Part shown: piece by piece, positions 1 through 34,986 of the stretch | How the letters are laid out: every line of letters starts with the position of its first letter | Numbering within the stretch: position 1 is the first letter of the stretch | Source of the DNA: a virus | Length of the DNA: 34,986 nucleotides | Virus genome (UHGV): UHGV-0285842 | Reading direction: 5' to 3' (one strand) | Position numbers and translations under genes: made by a program | The notes under the pieces: model-generated | What the model was told of the DNA's origin: nothing | Databases searched by the model: none | What the model saw: the letters and a program-made list of their open reading frames with translations, nothing else

Positions 1-2
1 AA

Positions 3-350
3 TTAAAGGTCTGCAAATTCCGCAATCGGTGCCATACCGCGAGATTCAAGGAAGTTCAGTAAGCGGCGCGGAGAAACATTCAAAATGCGCTCTGGCGGAA
101 AATCTACCGCGTCGAGGATTTTAAGACACTCTTCAAATTCCCCCATGGTAAACGCGGTGTGAGAATCCGAGCCTAATGCCACCCAACCTCCAGCATCACG
201 TACCGCTGCGGCTACCTCACGACAGTTGTCTTCACTGCCCTTACGTGAGTGTAAAAATGAGGAATTATTGATTTCCAGCGCCACCTGATGTTTCGCGGCT
301 GCTTCAGCAACGGCTTTCACATCTATTTCATATTTGGGATTCCCTAATAT
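3..350 (-). pseudogene. ycdX: 3' portion of a PHP-family phosphoesterase gene (YcdX-like), apparently truncated at the mobile-element junction
   Basis: Minus-strand ORF ends with stop at 3-5. The C-terminal ~115 aa ([10 protein letters not shown]...[12 protein letters not shown]...APIAEFADL) carry PHP-domain motifs and match my recollection of E. coli YcdX. The N-terminal 60 aa of the ORF (351-533) lack the PHP HxH motif and overlap a well-initiated plus-strand gene at 384. Gene symbol is from memory, not a search. Confidence 0.5.
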
Positions 351-1846: not shown

Positions 1847-3526
1847 ATGAAAACTAAACTGTATTCGTATATTCGCTTCTCGTCTATGCGTCAGAATGAT
1901 GGTTCGAGTTATGAACGACAAATCAGGATGGCGAGAGAGGTTGCGGCAAAGTATGACCTTGAACTGGTAAATGATTATCAGGATCTGGGTGTATCTGCGT
2001 TTAAGGGTGCTAACTCCAAAACAGGGGCGCTATCTCGTTTCCTTGATGCAATTGGTAGATCCGTTCCTGTTGGTAGCTGGCTATTCATTGAAAACTTGGA
2101 CCGCTTATCCCGTGCCGATATTGTCAGTGCGCAGGAGTTATTCCTTTCAATCATCCGTAGGGGGATAACCATTGTTACTGGCATGGATAACAAGATCTAC
2201 TCGCTGGATACTGTTACCGCTAACCCGATGGACCTGATGTTCTCCATCCTTTTATTCATCCGTGGTAATGAGGAAAGCCAGACTAAGCGCAATCGTACTA
2301 ACTCAAGCGCACTGATTAAGATTAAAGCCCATCAAGAAAATCCCCAGAATCCGGCAGTGGCAATCGAGGAAGTTGGAAAGAATATGTGGTGGACGGATAC
2401 CACTTCCGGTTATGTGTTGCCTCATCCTACATACTTCCCTGTTGTTCAGGAGATTGTGGAATTACGGAAGAATGGACGTTCAACCGCCGAAATACTGGAT
2501 CACCTTAACGAGACATATACACCGCCACCAGCGGTTAGTAATAAGAAGCATTCAAAATGGTCACGGGCAATGGTTGAAAGGTTGTTCCATACCCGCGCTT
2601 TGATTGGTATCAAGGAAGTCTCTGTAGATGGTGTTAACTATGAGTTAAAGGATTATTACCCTCGTGTTATTGATGATGCTACGTTCTATCACCTTAAGAA
2701 AAATATTGGTGCTAGAGCATGGAACTTTGGAGACAAGGAAGAAGTTAAACCGATCCCCCTGCTTAGTGGTATTGGCCTATTGAAATGTGATCATTGCGGT
2801 TGCGCTATGGTTAAAGTGAAGGGAACGAACAAACGTTCTGACCAGTATCGTTATACATGTGATGCGACCCGTTCACGTAGACTTGATTGCGAGCATCCAA
2901 ACTGGAGTTTTCGAGGTGATCAATTAGAGAAAGCTGTATTGCAATTGCTGGCTGATAAAATCTGGATTGCTGAGGACAAGGCTAATCCGGTTCCGGCGTT
3001 GAAAGTACAGGTTGATGAAATATCACGCAAGATTGATAACCTGATTGCCCTTTCTGCTATGACAGGAGCAACGAAGGAGCTAGCCGATCAGATTACTACC
3101 CTCAATAGCGAGCGTGAAACACTCTACAATCAGATCAAGATGGCAGAAGAGGAAATGTATTCTGTGGACTCTCAAGGCTGGGAGAAGCTCGCAGAATTTG
3201 ATTTAGAAGATGTTTATAACGAGGAACGACTAAAGGTCCGGTTTAAGATTAAGCAAGCTCTAAAGCGGATCGGGTGTAGCAGGATTGACAGAAATAAAAA
3301 CTTGTTTGTGCTGGAATACATCGATGGAAAGACCCAGAGAGTTGTAATAGAAAATTCAAGAGGAACGAGGAAAGGCCGGATATTCATTGATTTGAAAACT
3401 ATCAATGATAGGCAGATTCTGGAGAGTAACGGGCTTGTTTTGCATCCATGTTTAGACATGCTGACAGATAAGAACTGGAAACCAGAAGAGGAAATACCAG
3501 GTCCATTACAGGAATTTGGAATTTAA
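1847..3526 (+). CDS. large serine recombinase (integrase-type)
   Basis: N-terminal resolvase-type catalytic domain (YIRFSSMRQ, DLGVSAF, LDRLSR), central recombinase domain, Cys-rich zinc-ribbon (CDHCGCAMV...YTCDA...LDCEH) and C-terminal coiled coil. ATG 1847 preferred over the track's TTG at 1832. Confidence 0.85.
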   Translation: MKTKLYSYIRFSSMRQNDGSSYERQIRMAREVAAKYDLELVNDYQDLGVSAFKGANSKTGALSRFLDAIGRSVPVGSWLFIENLDRLSRADIVSAQELFLSIIRRGITIVTGMDNKIYSLDTVTANPMDLMFSILLFIRGNEESQTKRNRTNSSALIKIKAHQENPQNPAVAIEEVGKNMWWTDTTSGYVLPHPTYFPVVQEIVELRKNGRSTAEILDHLNETYTPPPAVSNKKHSKWSRAMVERLFHTRALIGIKEVSVDGVNYELKDYYPRVIDDATFYHLKKNIGARAWNFGDKEEVKPIPLLSGIGLLKCDHCGCAMVKVKGTNKRSDQYRYTCDATRSRRLDCEHPNWSFRGDQLEKAVLQLLADKIWIAEDKANPVPALKVQVDEISRKIDNLIALSAMTGATKELADQITTLNSERETLYNQIKMAEEEMYSVDSQGWEKLAEFDLEDVYNEERLKVRFKIKQALKRIGCSRIDRNKNLFVLEYIDGKTQRVVIENSRGTRKGRIFIDLKTINDRQILESNGLVLHPCLDMLTDKNWKPEEEIPGPLQEFGI

Positions 3527-3563
3527 GCGGCCTAAATCGACGTATAACGAGCTAAAACAGTTA

Positions 3564-3588
3564 AGGGGTACATCCGTACCCCTTTTTA
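3564..3588. terminator. hairpin terminator between convergent recombinase and nuclease-like genes
   Basis: Stem GGGGTAC (3565-3571) / GTACCCC (3576-3582), 4-nt loop, TTTTT downstream. Confidence 0.55.
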
Positions 3589-3599
3589 ATTTAATTGTA

Positions 3600-4598
3600 T
3601 TAAAGAGCCTCTAAAGGGCTTAAATCGAGTTCTAAGTCTTCCGGTGTTAAATCAGCTAACGGTGCATTCATCCACTGCGATAAATCTCGTTCTATGTCTT
3701 CATCACTAATGTAGTTGTTCAGATTGATTGCGTTGGTATCATCAAAATACATTGGCTTAGATGGGTTGGTGTGGATGTATTCATTGATGAATGATTTAAC
3801 ATCTTTCAGCTTGCTAATCGGTAGCGTTTCTGTGAATCCGCTATTCATTACCTTACGTGGGATTTTCTTGCCCTGAATATTCTTTTTAATCCCCATTTCT
3901 AAATCACCAGCTTTCCATCCAATGTTAAACAAATGTGAGCATTCAAAGGTGATTTTCTCGCTGGTGTGCTTCTGGTGTTCTCTTACCCGTTGCATCGGAT
4001 CTTTGCGAGTGGTAATTCCATATTTGAAAAACTTCTCGCCAACACGAATTAGATAAAAGTGCATAGGGCGCTGTGCAAACTTGTTTCTGATAACCTGTTT
4101 TCTACCATTCTGAATTGATTTAAGTACACCCCTAACCAAAGGGCATGTTAACCCGCCTTGTCTGCGGTTATTGTGTAAATCACCTTTCTTGTGAATCTTT
4201 CCGTGGCACTTACAACGAAGAATTAGTTTAGTGTCAACACCCTGATAAGGTTCAGCCAGACCTAACACATCCCACCCTATCGGCTTGTAGAACTTGCGAG
4301 CGTTTTCTAAGTGTTCTTCTTCGGTAAATCTAAACTTCTTCTTAGGCGGTGATACTCTATCTTTGCCAGTAAACTGACCAGTTAGAACATGACTAATACA
4401 TGGCGTTTTAACCTTTCCGTTAACTTCTATGCAAACTTTGGTGTTCTGGAATGGTTTCTTTACAGGAAGCACAAAACCACTGTATAACCATCCATGCACT
4501 TGACAAACTTTAATGATTCTGGTTTCATATTCGACCGGAGGGGTCGCACGTTTGCTTTTTGCGGTAAATTCGATATCCTTTGCTAAAGTAGTATTCAT
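3600..4598 (-). CDS. putative T5orf172 / GIY-YIG-like domain protein with Cys/His cluster (possible nuclease)
   Basis: Start ATG 4598 with GAGGAC Shine-Dalgarno (track ORF extends further upstream without a ribosome-binding site). Motif HFYLIRVGEKFFKYGITTRKDPMQRVREH resembles the T5orf172 signature; Cys/His cluster CKCHGKIHKKGDLHNNRRQGGLTCP upstream of it. Assignment from memory only. Confidence 0.4.
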   Translation of the reverse strand: MNTTLAKDIEFTAKSKRATPPVEYETRIIKVCQVHGWLYSGFVLPVKKPFQNTKVCIEVNGKVKTPCISHVLTGQFTGKDRVSPPKKKFRFTEEEHLENARKFYKPIGWDVLGLAEPYQGVDTKLILRCKCHGKIHKKGDLHNNRRQGGLTCPLVRGVLKSIQNGRKQVIRNKFAQRPMHFYLIRVGEKFFKYGITTRKDPMQRVREHQKHTSEKITFECSHLFNIGWKAGDLEMGIKKNIQGKKIPRKVMNSGFTETLPISKLKDVKSFINEYIHTNPSKPMYFDDTNAINLNNYISDEDIERDLSQWMNAPLADLTPEDLELDLSPLEAL

Positions 4599-4633
4599 AG
4601 TAGTGTCCTCGAAAATAATAAGTTCACTACTAT

Positions 4634-5074
4634 TTATTGAGAAAAATTTGTTGTAATGGTTGAAGACCACGGGCATGAGTAGTAACCACGACCGCCACCG
4701 ATCAAACAAATGGTCGGACGGAAACCAGTAAGATCACAAAATGAATCAGTGTCATGCGCAGGAGAACGATGCTCTGCTTCGTCAGAGAAAATGTTTGCCA
4801 CCGGAGATTCCACTTTAACTTCCGGTGCTTCTTCAACATCTGACTTAACTTCTTCAACCACTGGTTCAACTTCTGGAGATTCTTCTTTTGTTTCTTCAAT
4901 GACGATCTCAGGTTCTTTCATTGCTTCAACCAGAGACGGATCAACTTCGTCGAATACCACTTTATCATCTGCGGTATATTTGTCTATAATGAAAAAATGG
5001 TCAGAAATATAGCTAACGTCGCCAGCATATTCTAACAAAAAAGCGCCCACAAGAGGCGCTTTTGTTTTATCCAT
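4634..5074 (-). CDS. hypothetical acidic Glu/Val/Pro-rich protein; start uncertain
   Basis: ORF in a low-complexity region. Candidate ATG at 5074 overlaps the stop of the M15 gene and would place the 5043-5059 hairpin inside the coding sequence; alternative internal starts exist. Confidence 0.3.
   Translation of the reverse strand: MDKTKAPLVGAFLLEYAGDVSYISDHFFIIDKYTADDKVVFDEVDPSLVEAMKEPEIVIEETKEESPEVEPVVEEVKSDVEEAPEVKVESPVANIFSDEAEHRSPAHDTDSFCDLTGFRPTICLIGGGRGYYSCPWSSTITTNFSQ
5037..5063. terminator. bidirectional hairpin at the end of the late/lysis operon
   Basis: Stem GCGCC (5043-5047) / GGCGC (5055-5059), A-run upstream and T-run downstream; immediately 3' of the M15 gene stop (5067). 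Confidence 0.5.
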
Positions 5075-5420
5075 TCCACCGTGATTTTTTTGATCTGGAA
5101 TCAATATGCGTAAAGGTTTTATATTTTCCTAAGCCGTATTGAGTAGGATATTTCCCATCAAGATAAGCATGAACAATATCAGGCGAGACACCCTTGATAA
5201 CAATGTCAGCCGCACGGCCTCGAACATGATAGCTATTGGTTGCACCGCCAACATTCTTGTTATGAGTCGGGCAACGGTTGCCACTGTTAATAATCACTGG
5301 TTTACCGAAGTGCTCTCGTACATCCTCAAGAATCACCAGTAATTCAGCGTCGATTGTATCATAATCACATTTTCCGCATTTACATTTAAATTCCTTGCGA
5401 GAAAAATGCTTACTTAACAT
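5067..5420 (-). CDS. peptidase M15-family zinc peptidoglycan peptidase (candidate endolysin)
   Basis: FSRKEFKCKCGKCDY...SGNRCPTHNKNVGGATNSYHVRGRAADI...THID matches the M15A/YcbK-type zinc-binding pattern (H, D, H). ATG 5420 with GGGGG Shine-Dalgarno. Confidence 0.7.
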   Translation of the reverse strand: MLSKHFSRKEFKCKCGKCDYDTIDAELLVILEDVREHFGKPVIINSGNRCPTHNKNVGGATNSYHVRGRAADIVIKGVSPDIVHAYLDGKYPTQYGLGKYKTFTHIDSRSKKSRWNG

Positions 5421-17223: not shown

Positions 17224-20200
17224 TTACCCTAATTTAGCTTCAATTGCAGCAAGACGTTCACGAAGAAGTTTATTTTCTTCGCTCATTTCTTGGACCGCTT
17301 TAATTAAAAGCGCGTTCACTGCGGAGTTTGAAATTGTTAAAATTTCTTCTGGGTTATCAAGACCACCAATTTTTGCGGTTTTAACAGCTTCCGGTAATAC
17401 CTCTTGTAAATCCTGTGCGATAATACCAATCTCATGACCTATAACTTCTCGGTCATTAAGAGATTTAACTTTATCGTAGGTTTTAACTTTGAGTTTATTT
17501 ACCTTATCCACCGCATTTTCTTCGTAATCTTCAACATTAATTTTCAGACGACCATCGGAACGAATATAAACATCGTTAAAGTTACCATTACCAGGAGAAT
17601 AGAAAGTACCATCATGATGGAACTCGAATACAGCTTGAGGATGACCAGCCGCTGGCGATGCCTCCGCAGATCCAACACGAATAATAGCTTGCCCCCAATT
17701 TTGAGGAACACGACGCATACCAAAATCGACGGCAGTTGTATACCCTTGATTGGTGATTAAACTTCTTCCTTTAATAATTGGATAATAGCTATCTGGTCCA
17801 ACATAGCCATGATCGACGAATATTGGAGCTTCTAATCCCCATTGATCGCCCCAACCTCCAGATTGGCTAGCAGTCCAACGTTCACCATGAACATAGAATC
17901 GAACGTTATTGACATGAGTCATTTCGACACCTTTTGGACTTAGCGCGATATCACCCGCGTTTGTAATATTGATAGCAGCATTAGTAGCATAGCTATAGAA
18001 CGCTAATCCATTATCAGCACCACCTTTACCGATATACCAGTTGTTATTATCAGCACAAGTACCCAGCAAATATATAGACGAATCACCCGTTTCGGCATTC
18101 ATGACGATTGCGTCAGAACCACGATTAACTTTAAGTTTCCCGAAGAAGGTGTTTTTAATGGTATTATCACCCAATCGTTCAAATTCTGCTAAAAATCCTT
18201 TTGAGTCACGAAGACTTAAAACGTTATTTCGACCTGTATTGCTTGCACCCCAATGGACGAGTTCCATATAGTCCATAGATTGACGAGAACCAGCTTTAAA
18301 GAACAGGTTGTCTTCGAGACGAGTGCTACCATCAATTCCAAGATGCAAACAACGAGCAGTTTCAGTGCCACCTAAATATAATCCACCGTCAGCAAAATTA
18401 TAGCTGAATGGTCTACGAGTATTCCACGGTCCAAATGAATCACCGAGATCTGTGGTAAGAATATGGAAGCCAACGCCATCATTTCTAAAAATTAAGCCAT
18501 AATTGCCACCTTTAACAGCCAAACGAGCATTTTCAGATAATGCAACTTCGCTATTCATTACAATTTTCTGGCCTTTACCGCCAGTAATATGCAATTCACC
18601 ATCTTCAATCAGGTTTATAGAGTTTTGACCGTTATCGTTCCACCAAATAAAATCTTTGGTCGTCAAATCACCAAAACCAAACCAACCATTACGAACATCT
18701 TGACCAGTGCGATAATCCATAAAATTAAAATGGCTTGATTCGTTTGGTCCTCGACGAATATCAATACCAGCATTACCAGTACCACCATCCAATGTTAATT
18801 TCTTGATATGTAACCCGGATGTTGCTGTCAGCAATAATTCCTGATTTGTATCTTCGTATCCAGTAGCAAGACGATATGCGTTATCATCAACTGTCTCATG
18901 CCAGATTGTAGCTGGTGCACAACTACGGAAGCGACGCAACATCTTTTTAGCATTTGTCGGTTGTTCGTTTAAATGCTCAATATCATATTGGCCTTGATGA
19001 TTGCCAGCAAAATTTAACGTCCCACGGTTGCTAAAGTTATTGAACGATGAAATGTTAAGAGCATCAAAAATTTCGTCTGCAACAGGTTTTTCACCACCCA
19101 GATATTCAGGAGTATCCAACAGGTTTAAAGAAACACCACCGGAAGAAACTTGATATTCTGCTAAAACAAATCCTGTATGTGCACCGTAGTAAGCGTAAAG
19201 ATCGTAATTGTCGCCATCGGTTGGAATAGCGCAAAAATGTTGTTCATAATGCCAAATAGTATAATACGCATTGAATACAACACCTTTCGGGCTATTGTTG
19301 CCGCATCGAATCACCAATTCGATAATATTGGCTTGTCCATTATGTCCTACGTTATAACCGTTACCACCAACCAAACGGATCTTAGCCGTGCGACCGTGTT
19401 GTTGTGGCATTGTCAAAGTGCCTAGTTTAAACCAACCACCCTCGATACCAAAATTAAGCGTCTTCTGGAACAGTCGGTCAATTTCTGCTTTCGAATATGC
19501 GCCAATTTCAGCCGGAGTAGGTTTATCGCCTTCATGATACATGCGGTGAGAATATGACAAATTACCTAATTCATCATAGCCGTATGTTCTTACAGTAGCA
19601 TGTGGATTAGACCCATAAGTGAACTCGAAGCCACGAGCATGATTAACACCAGATGGATGCGGAACATGCAAGATCATTGCAATATGACCCGCCAGGTCAT
19701 TCATGCGGAATGCACCAAAGTAATCAAGATTACGCGCATTTGGATCATCAAAATAGTTTGCGGTCTTAGACAGCAAATAACCATCAGTATAAGTGTTTAC
19801 GTGTTTTTTGATGTACTTGCCATCAGCAGATCCATCGGCTGCATCAATACGGCTTTCTAAACGTGCCAGTTCAGAATCAGTGTAAGACTTGTTATTGTCA
19901 ACTTTGCTATGAATTGCTGTATTTTTGGCTTCAACATCACGGGTTAATGCTGCGACGTTATCCGCTGCCTCTTGCTTATTGGCTGCAATCACACCAGTAA
20001 GGTTATTGTAGGTGTCAGTTAACTGATTTTCCGCATAGACTTTATTTGCTGCGATAGTGCGGTCAGTTTCTGCCTTAATCAAATCAACCTTGTCATTGAT
20101 TGCTTTGTCATTGCTTGCGATGGTTGCATCGGTGCGGGATTTAATATCATCAACTTTTTTATTGATGCGGGTGTCCAGTTCCTGAGTTGCTACAGCAGCC

Positions 20201-20631
20201 GCATTTTTATTAGCGTTGATGGTATCCGACAATTCAGCTTTAACACCAGCAAGGTCGGAAGCAGCTTTATTTTTATTGGCCTCGATTGTCGCGTCGGTTT
20301 CGCGTTTAATTACATCAACTTTATTGTTAATTTCTGCGTGATTTGCTGCGATGGTTGCATCAGTAGTTTGTTTAATTTCATCTACTTTAGCGTGAATATT
20401 GCGGTCATTTACTGCAATTGTGCTATCTAGTTCTTGTTTGTTAGCATCAACTTTAGATTCTAGTGCCGCGTGAGTTTCAGGAGAAACAGAGATTTGAACT
20501 ACTTCATGATCTCGGTCTTTGGTAAAAATAACATGGTCTTTAAGGTTGATTGCTACCTCACCGACCTGTAATTGTTCCGGCGTTGGTTTTTTGCCAGAAA
20601 CATTAGTTCGTTTAAATTGGATTGATTGCAT
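17224..20631 (-). CDS. side tail fibre (1135 aa) with C-terminal peptidase S74-type intramolecular chaperone domain
   Basis: N-terminal repeated KVDxIKxxTDATIxAN units, central beta-helix-like Gly/Asn-rich region, C-terminal ~110 aa (SDGRLKINVEDY...LLRERLAAIEAKLG) resembling autoproteolytic chaperone domains of phage fibres and endosialidases. GAGGTGA Shine-Dalgarno before ATG 20631. Confidence 0.8.
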   Translation of the reverse strand: MQSIQFKRTNVSGKKPTPEQLQVGEVAINLKDHVIFTKDRDHEVVQISVSPETHAALESKVDANKQELDSTIAVNDRNIHAKVDEIKQTTDATIAANHAEINNKVDVIKRETDATIEANKNKAASDLAGVKAELSDTINANKNAAAVATQELDTRINKKVDDIKSRTDATIASNDKAINDKVDLIKAETDRTIAANKVYAENQLTDTYNNLTGVIAANKQEAADNVAALTRDVEAKNTAIHSKVDNNKSYTDSELARLESRIDAADGSADGKYIKKHVNTYTDGYLLSKTANYFDDPNARNLDYFGAFRMNDLAGHIAMILHVPHPSGVNHARGFEFTYGSNPHATVRTYGYDELGNLSYSHRMYHEGDKPTPAEIGAYSKAEIDRLFQKTLNFGIEGGWFKLGTLTMPQQHGRTAKIRLVGGNGYNVGHNGQANIIELVIRCGNNSPKGVVFNAYYTIWHYEQHFCAIPTDGDNYDLYAYYGAHTGFVLAEYQVSSGGVSLNLLDTPEYLGGEKPVADEIFDALNISSFNNFSNRGTLNFAGNHQGQYDIEHLNEQPTNAKKMLRRFRSCAPATIWHETVDDNAYRLATGYEDTNQELLLTATSGLHIKKLTLDGGTGNAGIDIRRGPNESSHFNFMDYRTGQDVRNGWFGFGDLTTKDFIWWNDNGQNSINLIEDGELHITGGKGQKIVMNSEVALSENARLAVKGGNYGLIFRNDGVGFHILTTDLGDSFGPWNTRRPFSYNFADGGLYLGGTETARCLHLGIDGSTRLEDNLFFKAGSRQSMDYMELVHWGASNTGRNNVLSLRDSKGFLAEFERLGDNTIKNTFFGKLKVNRGSDAIVMNAETGDSSIYLLGTCADNNNWYIGKGGADNGLAFYSYATNAAINITNAGDIALSPKGVEMTHVNNVRFYVHGERWTASQSGGWGDQWGLEAPIFVDHGYVGPDSYYPIIKGRSLITNQGYTTAVDFGMRRVPQNWGQAIIRVGSAEASPAAGHPQAVFEFHHDGTFYSPGNGNFNDVYIRSDGRLKINVEDYEENAVDKVNKLKVKTYDKVKSLNDREVIGHEIGIIAQDLQEVLPEAVKTAKIGGLDNPEEILTISNSAVNALLIKAVQEMSEENKLLRERLAAIEAKLG
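20040..20420. repeat. imperfect tandem repeats (~48 bp units) in the fibre N-terminal shaft
   Basis: Recurring GCGATGGTTGCATC...TTTAAT-TCATC-ACTTT blocks, at least four copies, encoding the repeated KVDxIK-TDATI peptide motif. Confidence 0.5.
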
Positions 20632-32935: not shown

Positions 32936-32963
32936 AGCCTCCCTTGTTGCAGCAAAGGAGGCT
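32936..32963 (-). terminator. hairpin with U-tract on the minus strand
   Basis: AGCCTCC (32936-32942) / GGAGGCT (32957-32963); A-run on the plus strand upstream gives a U-run on the minus-strand RNA. Confidence 0.35.
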
Positions 32964-33009
32964 TGAAATGAACAATTAAAACTAACACAGCATTCAGGAG
33001 TATTTATAA

Positions 33010-34005
33010 ATGAAAAATTCTAAGCGCATCACCTTCAACCTGTTTATTAAATCCAACGGCAAACTGAACATTACCGTCATGGAAGGTAAAGCAAGCAAAC
33101 AAGACAAATCCTTTGAAGTAGTATCCGGTAAGACTCTGACCGAAATGCGTCAGAATGCTGGCATCAAAGACGGTGCTGAATGGCAGATCACTAACCGTTT
33201 CGACAAACGTCACGTTAAACCTACACTGGTAGAAGGTGAATCCGTTTATTGCTTCGCTCGTGCTGTTAAAGCCGATGAAACTTACTATCTCGCTGTTGTT
33301 AAAACTGCTTCCGGCTTCCGTGCTGTAATGCATCACAAGAGCAAGCGTAACGAATACGGCGTAGAGACCCAGGAAGTTGCTAAACGCTTCCGTACTGTTG
33401 CCACCGAATCCACTGTAAAAGATGTTTCTGGTACTGTTAACACCACTAAAGGCGGTTCCTTCTACAACCACGCATTACAGGTTACTTCCTCCTTCTTCTG
33501 CAAAAAAGAAGCACAGAAAGAAGTTGCTCCGGTAGTAGTTGAAGAAGTTAAAGAAGAAGTTGCAGTGGTTGAATCTTCCGAAGTTGAAGCACTGAAAGCA
33601 CGCATTGCTGAACTGGAAGCTGAAAACGCATCTCTGAAAGCTGAACTGGCAGCACAGGAAACCACTTTCGAAGTAGCAGCGGTTGAAGTTGAAGCAGTTG
33701 AAGAAAAATCCATTGATGAAGAACTGGAAGAACTCCTTAACTATCGCTGGGGTGTTGTTGCAGAAGTAGAACAAGAAGTTGCTCCGGTAGTTGTTCCGGT
33801 TGAAGTTGAAAAAGAATCCGCACCTGTTACTAACTTTGAATCCCTGCGCAATAACTTTATGGCTAAATTCAAAACCACTTGGGAAGATACCGAAGAAGAA
33901 CAAGAAGAGATTGAAGTAAACGAAGACGAGATCCGCGAAGCACAGATGGCACTGCATGACGCGATCTATGACACCAACTACAGCGCCTACGCACACGCAG
34001 CTTAA
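33010..34005 (+). CDS. acidic repeat protein (331 aa): N-terminal globular domain, Glu/Val/Ala-rich repeats and coiled coil
   Basis: CAGGAG Shine-Dalgarno before ATG 33010; codon choice (CGT, CTG, GGT, GAA, AAA, ACC) looks host-optimised compared with neighbours; internal EVAPVVV repeats and ALKARIAELEAENASLKAELAAQE heptads. Confidence 0.65.
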   Translation: MKNSKRITFNLFIKSNGKLNITVMEGKASKQDKSFEVVSGKTLTEMRQNAGIKDGAEWQITNRFDKRHVKPTLVEGESVYCFARAVKADETYYLAVVKTASGFRAVMHHKSKRNEYGVETQEVAKRFRTVATESTVKDVSGTVNTTKGGSFYNHALQVTSSFFCKKEAQKEVAPVVVEEVKEEVAVVESSEVEALKARIAELEAENASLKAELAAQETTFEVAAVEVEAVEEKSIDEELEELLNYRWGVVAEVEQEVAPVVVPVEVEKESAPVTNFESLRNNFMAKFKTTWEDTEEEQEEIEVNEDEIREAQMALHDAIYDTNYSAYAHAA

Positions 34006-34020
34006 TAGAGAGGTAATTCT

Positions 34021-34263
34021 ATGATTAATCAAAACAAAGAATTTCTGGGTAATCTGATGTTAGAAATTACCAAAATGAAAGAAAGAATGGTAGCGATGGA
34101 ATCAGAGATTAAAACACTTAAAGCTGATAATAAGGCGTTGAGAAAGTCCTTAAAGCTGATTGATGAGACTAATGCGGTTATGATGGATCATGTATTCCCT
34201 GAGTGGCGAAATGAAACTAAACCTACACAACATAAGAAACTTACACTTCGAATTGTTGCATAA
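34021..34263 (+). CDS. small coiled-coil protein (80 aa)
   Basis: AGAGAGGTAA before ATG 34021; heptad-rich; followed by a hairpin at 34269-34286. Confidence 0.55.
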   Translation: MINQNKEFLGNLMLEITKMKERMVAMESEIKTLKADNKALRKSLKLIDETNAVMMDHVFPEWRNETKPTQHKKLTLRIVA

Positions 34264-34286
34264 AAAAAGGGACTCCGAAGAGTCCC
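34262..34286. terminator. hairpin terminator (GGGACTC-CGAA-GAGTCCC) flanked by an A-run
   Basis: 7-bp stem; A7 upstream on the plus strand gives a U-tract for leftward transcripts; weaker T-rich tract downstream for rightward ones. Confidence 0.5.
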
Positions 34287-34363
34287 TAGTAAGTTTAGGT
34301 TAGGTTTGCACAACAAAGATGAGGTTATAATGAACATAATGCTACATTATTCTTTAAAGCCAG

Positions 34364-34388
34364 AAAAATAACCGCCCCGAAGGGCGGG
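34364..34388 (-). terminator. intrinsic terminator (UUCG-loop hairpin plus U-tract) for leftward transcripts
   Basis: Minus-strand RNA CCGCCC-UUCG-GGGCGG followed by UUAUUUUU. Confidence 0.55.
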
Positions 34389-34546
34389 AGGATTAATACT
34401 CAATCTATACTTGTTATGTTTTTATGTTGTATAGATCCTGACTATGAAAACACTGTACTGGAAGTGTGTTTTTATGGCTTTTAATCGGGAATCCTCAAAG
34501 AAGATCCCCTGTTAATAACCATAAGGAGAAAAGGCAGATTACACTA

Positions 34547-34720
34547 TTATTTAGTATCCTTTTTACAGCAACTAAAAAGAATAAACAAAAAGAAGCATAC
34601 CCAGCCGTAAGGCGTACCGATTAGAAATTTGAAAAACACCACCAGCGATATAAAAATCAATTTAATGCCAGCGACGATAGTCAAAAACAGCAGAGTAGCA
34701 AAGTAGACAAAAAGATCCAT
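34547..34720 (-). CDS. small hydrophobic membrane protein (57 aa)
   Basis: AGAGGAT Shine-Dalgarno before ATG 34720; sequence MDLFVYFATLLFLTIVAGIKLIFISLVVFFKFLIGTPYGWVCFFLFILFSCCKKDTK predicts two transmembrane segments; below the ORF-track length cut-off. Confidence 0.45.
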   Translation of the reverse strand: MDLFVYFATLLFLTIVAGIKLIFISLVVFFKFLIGTPYGWVCFFLFILFSCCKKDTK

Positions 34721-34773
34721 AGATAATCCTCTTTGAAAACGACCATCATCTATAGTTCAATTCATCGATTTAA

Positions 34774-34875
34774 TTAATGATACTTGAAAGCGTTACACAA
34801 AGTAGAAATGCCAATATGTGCCAGTGAATATACGATAGTTAATCCTACAGCCAGATAAATCAAAAATTCAACCAT
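34774..34875 (-). CDS. small membrane protein (33 aa)
   Basis: GAGGAT Shine-Dalgarno before ATG 34875 (track ORF 34774-34986 runs to the window edge without a ribosome-binding site); hydrophobic core FLIYLAVGLTIVYSLAHIGI. Confidence 0.35.
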   Translation of the reverse strand: MVEFLIYLAVGLTIVYSLAHIGISTLCNAFKYH

Positions 34876-34905
34876 AGGTAAATCCTCAAATAAGAAAAAG
34901 GTTAG

Positions 34906-34924
34906 CGGGGGATGTTCTCCCCCG
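34906..34924 (-). terminator. hairpin (CGGGGGA / TCCCCCG) with U-rich tail on the minus strand
   Basis: 7-bp stem; the minus-strand RNA continues CUAACCUUUUUCUU just before the 34875 gene ribosome-binding site. Confidence 0.4.
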
Positions 34925-34986
34925 TAGACGTTGACCAGCTCAACATCCTTCACGTATATATTTAGTATAGAAATTTTAAGACACAT

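Follow-up and report, generated by a model that had tools for sequence, protein, structure and literature searches.

A large serine integrase and its probable two-base insertion site within ycdX in an Escherichia coli prophage

The stretch of DNA considered here, UHGV virus genome UHGV-0285842 (34,986 nucleotides, referred to as the window), carries at positions 1847-3526 of the plus strand an open reading frame (ORF), int, which begins with an ATG at 1847, ends with its stop codon at 3526 and encodes a protein of 559 amino acids (Int). A mechanical ORF list starts the gene at a TTG at 1832, a codon lying within the T-run of a terminator, and the RefSeq relatives start at the ATG. Int contains three Pfam domains, all above their curated cut-offs: Resolvase (PF00239, residues 6-153, E=9e-15), Recombinase (PF07508, residues 198-287, E=4e-9) and Zn_ribbon_recom (PF13408, residues 310-368, E=1e-10). 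It is also matched over residues 2-484 by PHROG 95, labelled 'integrase' (E=4e-63), and far more weakly and only in part by PHROG 125, labelled 'DNA invertase' (E=2e-11). In an alignment of 33 homologs, with identities down to 23-30%, the invariant residues include S12, R10, Q16, D85, R86 and R89 as well as the zinc-ribbon cysteines C314, C317, C338 and C348. S12, which lies in a YxRxS motif, is the expected nucleophile.

An AlphaFold2 model of Int made from the same alignment (mean predicted local distance difference test score, pLDDT, 81.5) comprises a catalytic alpha/beta domain (residues ~1-125, with Ser12), a long helix E (127-164), a recombinase domain (RD, ~180-290) with a helical fold over residues 196-287, a poorly ordered linker (291-298), a beta-rich zinc-ribbon domain (ZD, ~311-372), two antiparallel long helices (382-406 and 410-439) that make up a predicted coiled coil (382-439), and a further C-terminal domain (444-559). 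The top matches to this model in a Foldseek search of the PDB were full-length serine integrases, namely the SPbeta-type complexes 9dxf, 9dxd and 9dxh (E ~1e-17), the PhiC31 integrase 9rah (E=5e-15) and the Listeria large serine recombinase (LSR)-DNA complex 4kis (E=6e-9), and small resolvases aligned to the N-terminal domain only. A phmmer search of Int against PDB sequences returned no match, and Int therefore belongs to a divergent branch.

The size of Int and its possession of RD, ZD and coiled coil are unlike the small serine invertases and resolvases, which have about 180-200 amino acids, a C-terminal helix-turn-helix (HTH) and neither RD nor ZD. The ratio of nonsynonymous to synonymous divergence (dN/dS) of int is 0.14-0.19 among four lineages, and this purifying selection argues for a working gene. 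The gene at 1847-3526 encodes a genuine large serine integrase, an uncharacterised member of a well-known enzyme family whose mechanism is not new. A preliminary description of the window, made from the sequence alone, had proposed a 560-residue serine recombinase with zinc ribbon and coiled coil, which the Pfam domains, the invariant residues, the model and the fold matches bear out for a protein one residue shorter.

Positions 1-344 of the window are 99.7% identical to the 3′ part of ycdX of E. coli K-12 on the opposite strand. The host gene, truncated by the insertion, occupies positions 1-341 (minus strand) from codon 134 to its stop, as identified from the identity to K-12 and from the partial ycdX pseudogene in relatives. 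The junction between host and element lies at positions 340-341, and the int ATG is 1,505 bp away, confirming the distance of about 1.5 kb given earlier. The window ends approximately 1.23 kb short of the right junction of the element, leaving the right attachment site (attR) outside it, and attachment (att) sites were mapped from both ends by combining attL of the window with attR of E. coli PEC41, in which the two halves of ycdX flank a 36.5-kb insert including two insertion sequence (IS) elements that the window does not have. The chromosomal site attB reads ...CATATTTGGGA TT TCCGGGATGG... in K-12, attL reads ...CATATTTGGGA TT CCCTAATATC... and attR reads ...ACGTTCGGG TT TCCGGGATGG.... Thus attL equals attB through the TT and then diverges, attR equals attB from the TT on and diverges directly leftward of it, and the TT at window positions 340-341 is the sole sequence common to attL, attR and attB.

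Within the window, attL spans positions 316-366, with approximate outer limits, and consists of the host half-site (~316-339), the TT (340-341) and the P′ half-site CCCTAATATCATGTACCCACAATAAC (342-366). The rebuilt phage site attP is TTATTAGGGGTTGACTACGTTCGGG-TT-CCCTAATATCATGTACCCACAATAAC, with the central sequence …TTATTAGGGGTTGACTACGTTCGGGTTCCCTAATATCATGTACCCACAATAAC…, and its arms form an imperfect inverted repeat in which 16 of 25 positions match (pattern CCC.AA..T..T..ACCC..AATAA). Serine integrases recombine through a 2-bp overlap without a longer identical core, and the core that tyrosine integrases leave is normally longer; the sharing of TT alone is what would be expected of the 2-bp crossover of a serine integrase. 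On the coding strand of ycdX, the crossover corresponds to the AA of codon 134 (Asn, ...SHPGN|PKYE...). The 5′ fragment of ycdX in the lysogen is predicted to encode residues 1-134 followed by six foreign residues, so that ycdX is inactivated, and PGAP labels both ycdX halves as pseudogenes.

The family of Int falls into 756 clusters (E<=1e-10), of which the top one has 975 member sequences, and all named homologs are labelled only 'recombinase family protein'. Identities to Int are 87-98% in Escherichia/Shigella, 69-77% in Salmonella, 73% in E. fergusonii and 61% in Edwardsiella, with more distant homologs in Enterobacter and Citrobacter (38%), and members of this family are present in 57 of 5,426 complete E. 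coli genomes (~1%). The integrase is also carried by 28 loci in IMG/VR, on contigs that appear to be prophage cut-outs ending near the att site. Relatives in E. coli, Salmonella, Edwardsiella and Proteus whose Int is 61-100% identical use ycdX at the same position. Salmonella has ycdX interrupted at the same nucleotide, with an attL/attR pair that shares only the TT (GGA TT CCC versus GGG TT TCC). The junction in Edwardsiella tarda is at the homologous place, with int starting ~240 bp from it, and the right end in Proteus mirabilis abuts a fragment of a PHP-domain (ycdX-like) gene with the sequence ...GTTAGGA TT TCCCGG....

Two further chromosomal genes are occupied in E. coli: hicB, at nucleotide ~300 of 417, in the elements of strains 14EC017 (L004/L041 among the loci compared), HeN100 and C325, and codB, at nucleotide ~360, in strain 06-00048. 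The junctions in ycdX, hicB and codB all have a TT with the flanks GGN-TT-NCC, and the ycdX and hicB targets are alike on the coding strand (GGAAATCCCAAATAT versus GGCAAACCTAAACAG). The hicB insertions (L004/L041, L005, L012) hit the C-terminal coding part of the antitoxin gene, and the toxin gene hicA is intact beside the prophage end. A literature search on ycdX, hicB and codB as targets of serine integrases, and on the RefSeq accession of Int, found nothing relevant.

Scans with PHROG or Pfam of essentially all ORFs of >=60 amino acids in the window, overlapping ORFs included, found no second recombinase and no tyrosine integrase. The annotation of the complete PEC41 and 14EC017 elements, including the right-end 1.2 kb, likewise contains no integrase besides int, apart from a transposase with an 'integrase core domain' that an IS carries in PEC41 and that the window does not have. 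The earlier claim that the sole recombinase is of the serine type thus holds for the window and for both complete relatives, and in neither is there a tyrosine integrase that would leave Int the part of an invertase or resolvase. Insertion of this E. coli prophage into host ycdX by Int at the two-base TT crossover is the most likely origin of these junctions, and the probability that Int is the integrase of this prophage, inserting it at the TT in ycdX, is put at roughly 85%.

Several points weigh against this assignment. attR was read from PEC41, whose Int protein is identical and whose element has ~96% DNA identity to that of the window. The common stretch in the hicB-type elements is 7 bp long (TTGCCAA); it contains the TT, and the 2-bp crossover is assumed there. 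The predicted attP junction had no exact match among contigs of viral, metagenome and genome collections, the last of which holds one genome per species; this empty search leaves the model neither supported nor refuted. No sigma-70-like promoter was found between the int ATG and the hairpin upstream of it, which places a terminator directly ahead of the gene. No recombination directionality factor (RDF) was recognised by Pfam, PHROG, PADLOC or fold match among the proteins of the element. Finally, some relatives carry IS insertions or a truncated int, and single copies may be defective.

The last of these points bears on an unlikely alternative, in which the prophage is decaying and immobile and its recombinase gene is an inactive relic of past integration that needs no RDF. 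In some relatives IS1, IS5 or IS3 has inserted, int is truncated (C325) or the annotation suggests damage, no attP-containing sequence was found in the public contigs, no isolated phage resembles the element, and a fragment of the T4-type gene inh near int would reflect deletion and decay in that region. Against this, int in the window is full length, retains all catalytic and zinc-binding residues and has low dN/dS among lineages, and the window has complete, intact morphogenesis and lysis ORFs and no IS. The presence of this type of element in three genes and four genera, with precise junctions, points to repeated recent integration. The Edwardsiella tarda contig breaks 27 nucleotides from the crossover, as if occupied and empty sites coexisted in the culture, which is weak evidence. 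This Logan contig (SRR5866647_268, 35,941 bp) holds a whole relative and starts 27 nucleotides on the host side of the TT (L007 1-30); such a break would correspond to a de Bruijn branch between attL and attB and hints at spontaneous excision in that culture.

A role of Int as a resolvase or invertase for an internal phage function, with another enzyme or a host system performing integration, is very improbable: the PHROG 125 match, the nearest phage homologs being lambdoid YbcK proteins (31.6% identity) in phages with tyrosine integrases, and the position of int 1.5 kb off the junction instead of abutting it would favour such a role, but Int has the RD, zinc ribbon and coiled coil of an integrase and not the form of a ~190-residue invertase with a C-terminal HTH, the window and the complete relatives contain no other integrase, the microhomology at the junction is 2 bp, the Int proteins of a ycdX-type and a hicB-type element differ most in their DNA-binding domains, and int of Edwardsiella does abut attL.

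With Int as the integrase, insertion would proceed as in the rest of the enzyme family, from which catalysis, the mechanism of synapsis, the need for an RDF and the present activity of the window copy are all extrapolated. Int dimers would bind the ~50-bp attP, which in the circular phage genome has the last right-end gene on one side and the first accessory gene on the other, and other Int dimers would bind the ~40-bp attB in ycdX (...CATATTTGGGA-TT-TCCGGGATGG..., codon 134), the coiled coils keeping both sites joined. Ser12 of each subunit would then cut, opening all four strands at the central TT, and one half of the complex would turn 180 degrees before the ends are rejoined, with the orientation set by the non-palindromic TT. 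The products would be attL at window positions 340-341 and attR ~1.2 kb past the window end, with YcdX cut short after residue 134. Excision would require a phage-encoded directionality factor binding the zinc-ribbon/coiled-coil region.

The choice of target may follow the DNA-binding part of the enzyme. Int of the window and Int of the hicB-type element of 14EC017 differ at 44 of 559 residues. The recombinase domain holds 20 of these differences, the zinc ribbon 13, the catalytic domain two and helix E none. The synonymous divergence (dS) of int is likewise low in the N-terminal part (0.06) and higher in the sequences for the recombinase domain (0.39) and the zinc ribbon (0.57). From these divergences, the DNA-binding module was more probably replaced by recombination than changed by point-mutational drift. 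The dS of 0.39-0.57 in this module, against 0.06 in the catalytic domain, and the 33 of 44 differences that fall there are in line with retargeting by this route. The tie between site and lineage is imperfect, in that FDAARGOS_1267, a variant with 87% nucleotide identity, is inserted in ycdX and HeN100, of the same class, in hicB.

Nothing resembling an RDF gene adjoins int, in agreement with the preliminary description, which had instead pointed to three small HTH-like paralogs as candidates. Protein A (28570-29172, plus strand, 200 amino acids) contains two copies of a ~55-residue lineage-specific domain, protein B (29208-29435, plus strand, 75 amino acids) has a model with three helices and a beta-hairpin, and protein C (32714-32893, plus strand, 59 amino acids), a paralog of B, is the product of the first gene of the rightward early operon; each is a candidate RDF or regulator. 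The paralogy was confirmed, B matching C with E=6e-9 and A holding the same domain twice. The HTH label was dropped, since neither Pfam nor a PDB fold search with B gave a significant HTH match. The model of B (pLDDT 80) has a winged-helix-like topology, and its best PDB matches, the DNA-binding domains of ArgR/AhrC, SloR, Fur and MarR, were not significant (E>0.6). The small early proteins had no Pfam match even at E<=5 and none in PHROG or PADLOC.

The A/B/C family comprises 71 clusters restricted to Enterobacterales (Escherichia/Shigella, Salmonella, Proteus and Providencia), in which every named member is a 'hypothetical protein' and every context examined belongs to this lineage. The order terminase, A, B, ..., C, a 320-340-residue protein and a ~80-residue protein is kept in Salmonella and Proteus. 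The RDFs known to date differ widely in structure and are now identified by their predicted binding to the zinc-ribbon/coiled-coil region (PMC12286644, PMC11795197, PMC11722253). A, B and C are conserved in the lineage yet unlinked to int, and as RDFs they are no better supported than other conserved early orphans; their candidacy is only a guess. The combined proposal, in which exchange of the RD/ZD module retargets one scaffold among ycdX, hicB and codB with the GGN-TT-NCC core kept, and in which A, B or C is the excision factor, is a doubtful one. If true, the excision factor would represent an RDF family unrelated to any known RDF.

Among sequenced phages, the nearest homologs of Int are the YbcK-type LSRs of E. 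coli lambdoid phages (4A7, Perceval and DLP12) and the serine recombinases of the Burkholderia phages JC1, Bcep22 and Bcep176, which have 28-32% identity over 80-94% of Int. They are much more distant from Int than the uncharacterised chromosomal homologs (60-98% identity) and come from other phage types. Unlike int, the YbcK genes of lambdoid phages lie away from the prophage end, and the phages carrying them integrate via tyrosine integrases. The Listeria A118/LI integrase (4kis) and the PhiC31 integrase (9rah, 4bqq) resemble Int in their N-terminal catalytic serine, in the combination of RD, zinc ribbon and coiled coil, and in their short, imperfectly palindromic att sites with a 2-bp crossover, but are only 12-16% identical to it and have different att sequences. 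The A118 integrase also targets a coding gene, comK. No homologs of Gp44 and gp3, the RDFs of the A118/LI and PhiC31 systems, were detectable in the window.

The best full-length structural match is SprA/SprB of SPbeta (9dxf/9dxd/9dxh; PMC11722253), with E=1e-17 in Foldseek over ~580 aligned columns. SprA is similar to Int in size (534-545 versus 559 amino acids) and has its domains in the same order, coiled coil included, and SPbeta, like this prophage, inserts within a host protein-coding gene and inactivates it. The two differ in that sequence identity is just 13-14%, the host here is a Gram-negative enterobacterium and nothing like the RDF SprB is recognisable; excision under developmental control is a trait of SPbeta and is not known here. 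The catalogue of Durrant et al. 2022 (PMC10083194) describes LSRs located near the prophage end, a short identical 'centre' with a core dinucleotide, including TT cores, and target genes that are shared by, or switched between, related LSRs. The pair of Int and its att sites follows the same logic and has the same features as those LSR/att pairs. A search of the supplementary text of that catalogue gave no match to the Int peptide, its accession or the att strings, and no record of Int having been assayed was found.

What is added here is a set of base-resolved att sites, the conservation of the target across genera and a natural ycdX/hicB/codB series with divergence at the level of the module. 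Serine integrases are prized as genome-engineering tools, and, to our knowledge, few that occur naturally in E. coli and related bacteria have been characterised. The att sites of Int are resolved to the base, close natural variants of it target two further chromosomal genes, and the concentration of the differences between a ycdX-type and a hicB-type enzyme in the DNA-binding module provides a ready data set for learning how targets are chosen. The comparison also defines codon 134 of ycdX as a site of prophage insertion that four enterobacterial genera have in common. The prophage lineage, which has no sequenced phage relative and a largely orphan early region, is present in about 1% of complete E. 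coli genomes.

The region between the crossover and int contains several genes, tiny membrane peptides among them, none with a PADLOC match or an informative family. On the plus strand they include an accessory gene of 90 amino acids at 384-656 (phrog_6147), which HeN100 does not have; an accessory gene of 128 amino acids at 669-1055 (phrog_14908), followed by a terminator at 1069-1089; a membrane peptide of 40 amino acids at 1197-1319, read from the sequence as 'ISSKTF' plus a hydrophobic tail; and an accessory gene of 139 amino acids at 1364-1783, with an N-terminal signal peptide and no family match. This accessory set varies among relatives and is missing in Edwardsiella. The region is an accessory 'moron' cluster inserted between attP and int, and its presence is the reason that int does not abut the junction. 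The ~40-residue tail-anchored peptide (ISSKT[FY]) is kept between attL and int in both E. coli and Edwardsiella (L006 4875-5015), unlike the remaining accessory cluster, which differs between the two.

An intrinsic-terminator-like hairpin of 11 bp (-20.5 kcal/mol) with a T-run lies at 1798-1837 on the plus strand and ends 10 nucleotides before the int ATG. A hairpin and T-run are present 10-20 nucleotides before the start of int in every lineage examined, with different stems in Edwardsiella, Salmonella and divergent E. coli (L006 5023-5050, L008 9956-9990, L011 3962-3985) and with the loop TATAAT in three lineages. The position of this terminator implies a possibly tight and unusual control of int, which could be expressed by read-through or from a promoter overlapping the hairpin. 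Downstream, a bidirectional terminator at 3563-3584 separates int from a convergent gene.

This convergent gene (3600-4709, minus strand) encodes a protein of 369 amino acids with weak matches to phrog_681 (T5-type 'endonuclease / homing endonuclease', E=7e-20) and to Pfam MUG113/T5orf172 (E=0.14). A GIY-YIG nuclease gene is found in the same region in some relatives and may be linked to nearby T4-like DNA. The next ORF (4634-5104, minus strand; 156 amino acids) includes in frame, at 4666-4977, a 312-bp internal piece of inh, the prohead-protease inhibitor gene of T4-like phages (Krischvirus), with 95.5-98% DNA identity. Relatives carry at the same spot (L008 13604-15540, L011 7491-9308, L006 7135-7386) uvsW with ~70% nucleotide identity to phage Phi1 and uvsY with 88%, in the T4 gene order inh(-), uvsW(+), uvsY(-), and the Edwardsiella relative has a T4-spanin match. 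These T4-like genes next to int suggest that this temperate lineage may have exchanged DNA with virulent T4-like phages.

The remainder of the element is that of a siphovirus-type prophage of roughly 35-36 kb. PHROG matches in the window comprise, in order, the terminase large subunit, a head-tail joining protein, the portal and the major head protein, and also the tail tube, the tape measure, distal tail and tail-tip proteins and an M15 peptidase endolysin. Pfam domains in the relatives include GpA_ATPase/GpA_nuclease, Phage_portal_2, Peptidase_S78 with Phage_capsid, as a protease-capsid fusion, and Phage_Tail_Tip. No close phage was found among 50,697 phage records, the nearest capsids being 27-46% identical, and the only DNA similarity to these records was one 630-bp stretch 71% identical to phage DCP80, together with the inh fragment. 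Apart from a Rha/Ant-like gene the early arm encodes orphan proteins only, and the lambdoid early and regulatory genes (CI/Cro, N, O/P, Q) are missing. The lambda-like morphogenesis proposed in the preliminary description therefore held only for the genes of packaging and portal, which follow the lambda-type order (terminase A, W-like, portal B), and failed for the rest, given the protease-capsid fusion, the lack of lambdoid regulatory genes and the lack of a close phage.

No Rfam RNA family was found in the window. Across the early arm (28483-34986), no repressor, replication, antitermination or small-terminase gene was recognisable, the Rha/Ant-like gene (29629-30459) being the one that was, and a 183-residue right-end protein of the relatives (L002 36237-37393) has a faintly Nu1-like N terminus (E=0.018). 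A 1.2-kb gene-free stretch at 31480-32714, whose position is kept in the Salmonella and Proteus relatives, contains six or seven GTGTAGG-type iterons (32023-32148) and three CACTG-N10-CAG palindromes (32491-32618) located 120-223 nucleotides upstream of gene C, and looks like a putative origin/operator region. One of the palindromes is a perfect CTGT-N8-ACAG, the core of a LexA box, and the palindromes are kept in E. coli relatives but not in those from Salmonella and Proteus. A LexA-controlled early operon was considered and rejected, as the window-wide count of such boxes is not above chance and they are absent from the Salmonella and Proteus relatives; an operator specific to the element is no less likely.

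The ORF at 17224-20631 (minus strand), which lies between the head genes and the tail genes, encodes a tail-fibre protein of 1135 amino acids. Over its C-terminal ~500 residues this protein matches the 'long tail fiber distal subunit' of the T4 gp37 type (phrog_1699, E=2e-127), and it represents another T-even-like module of the element, the second.

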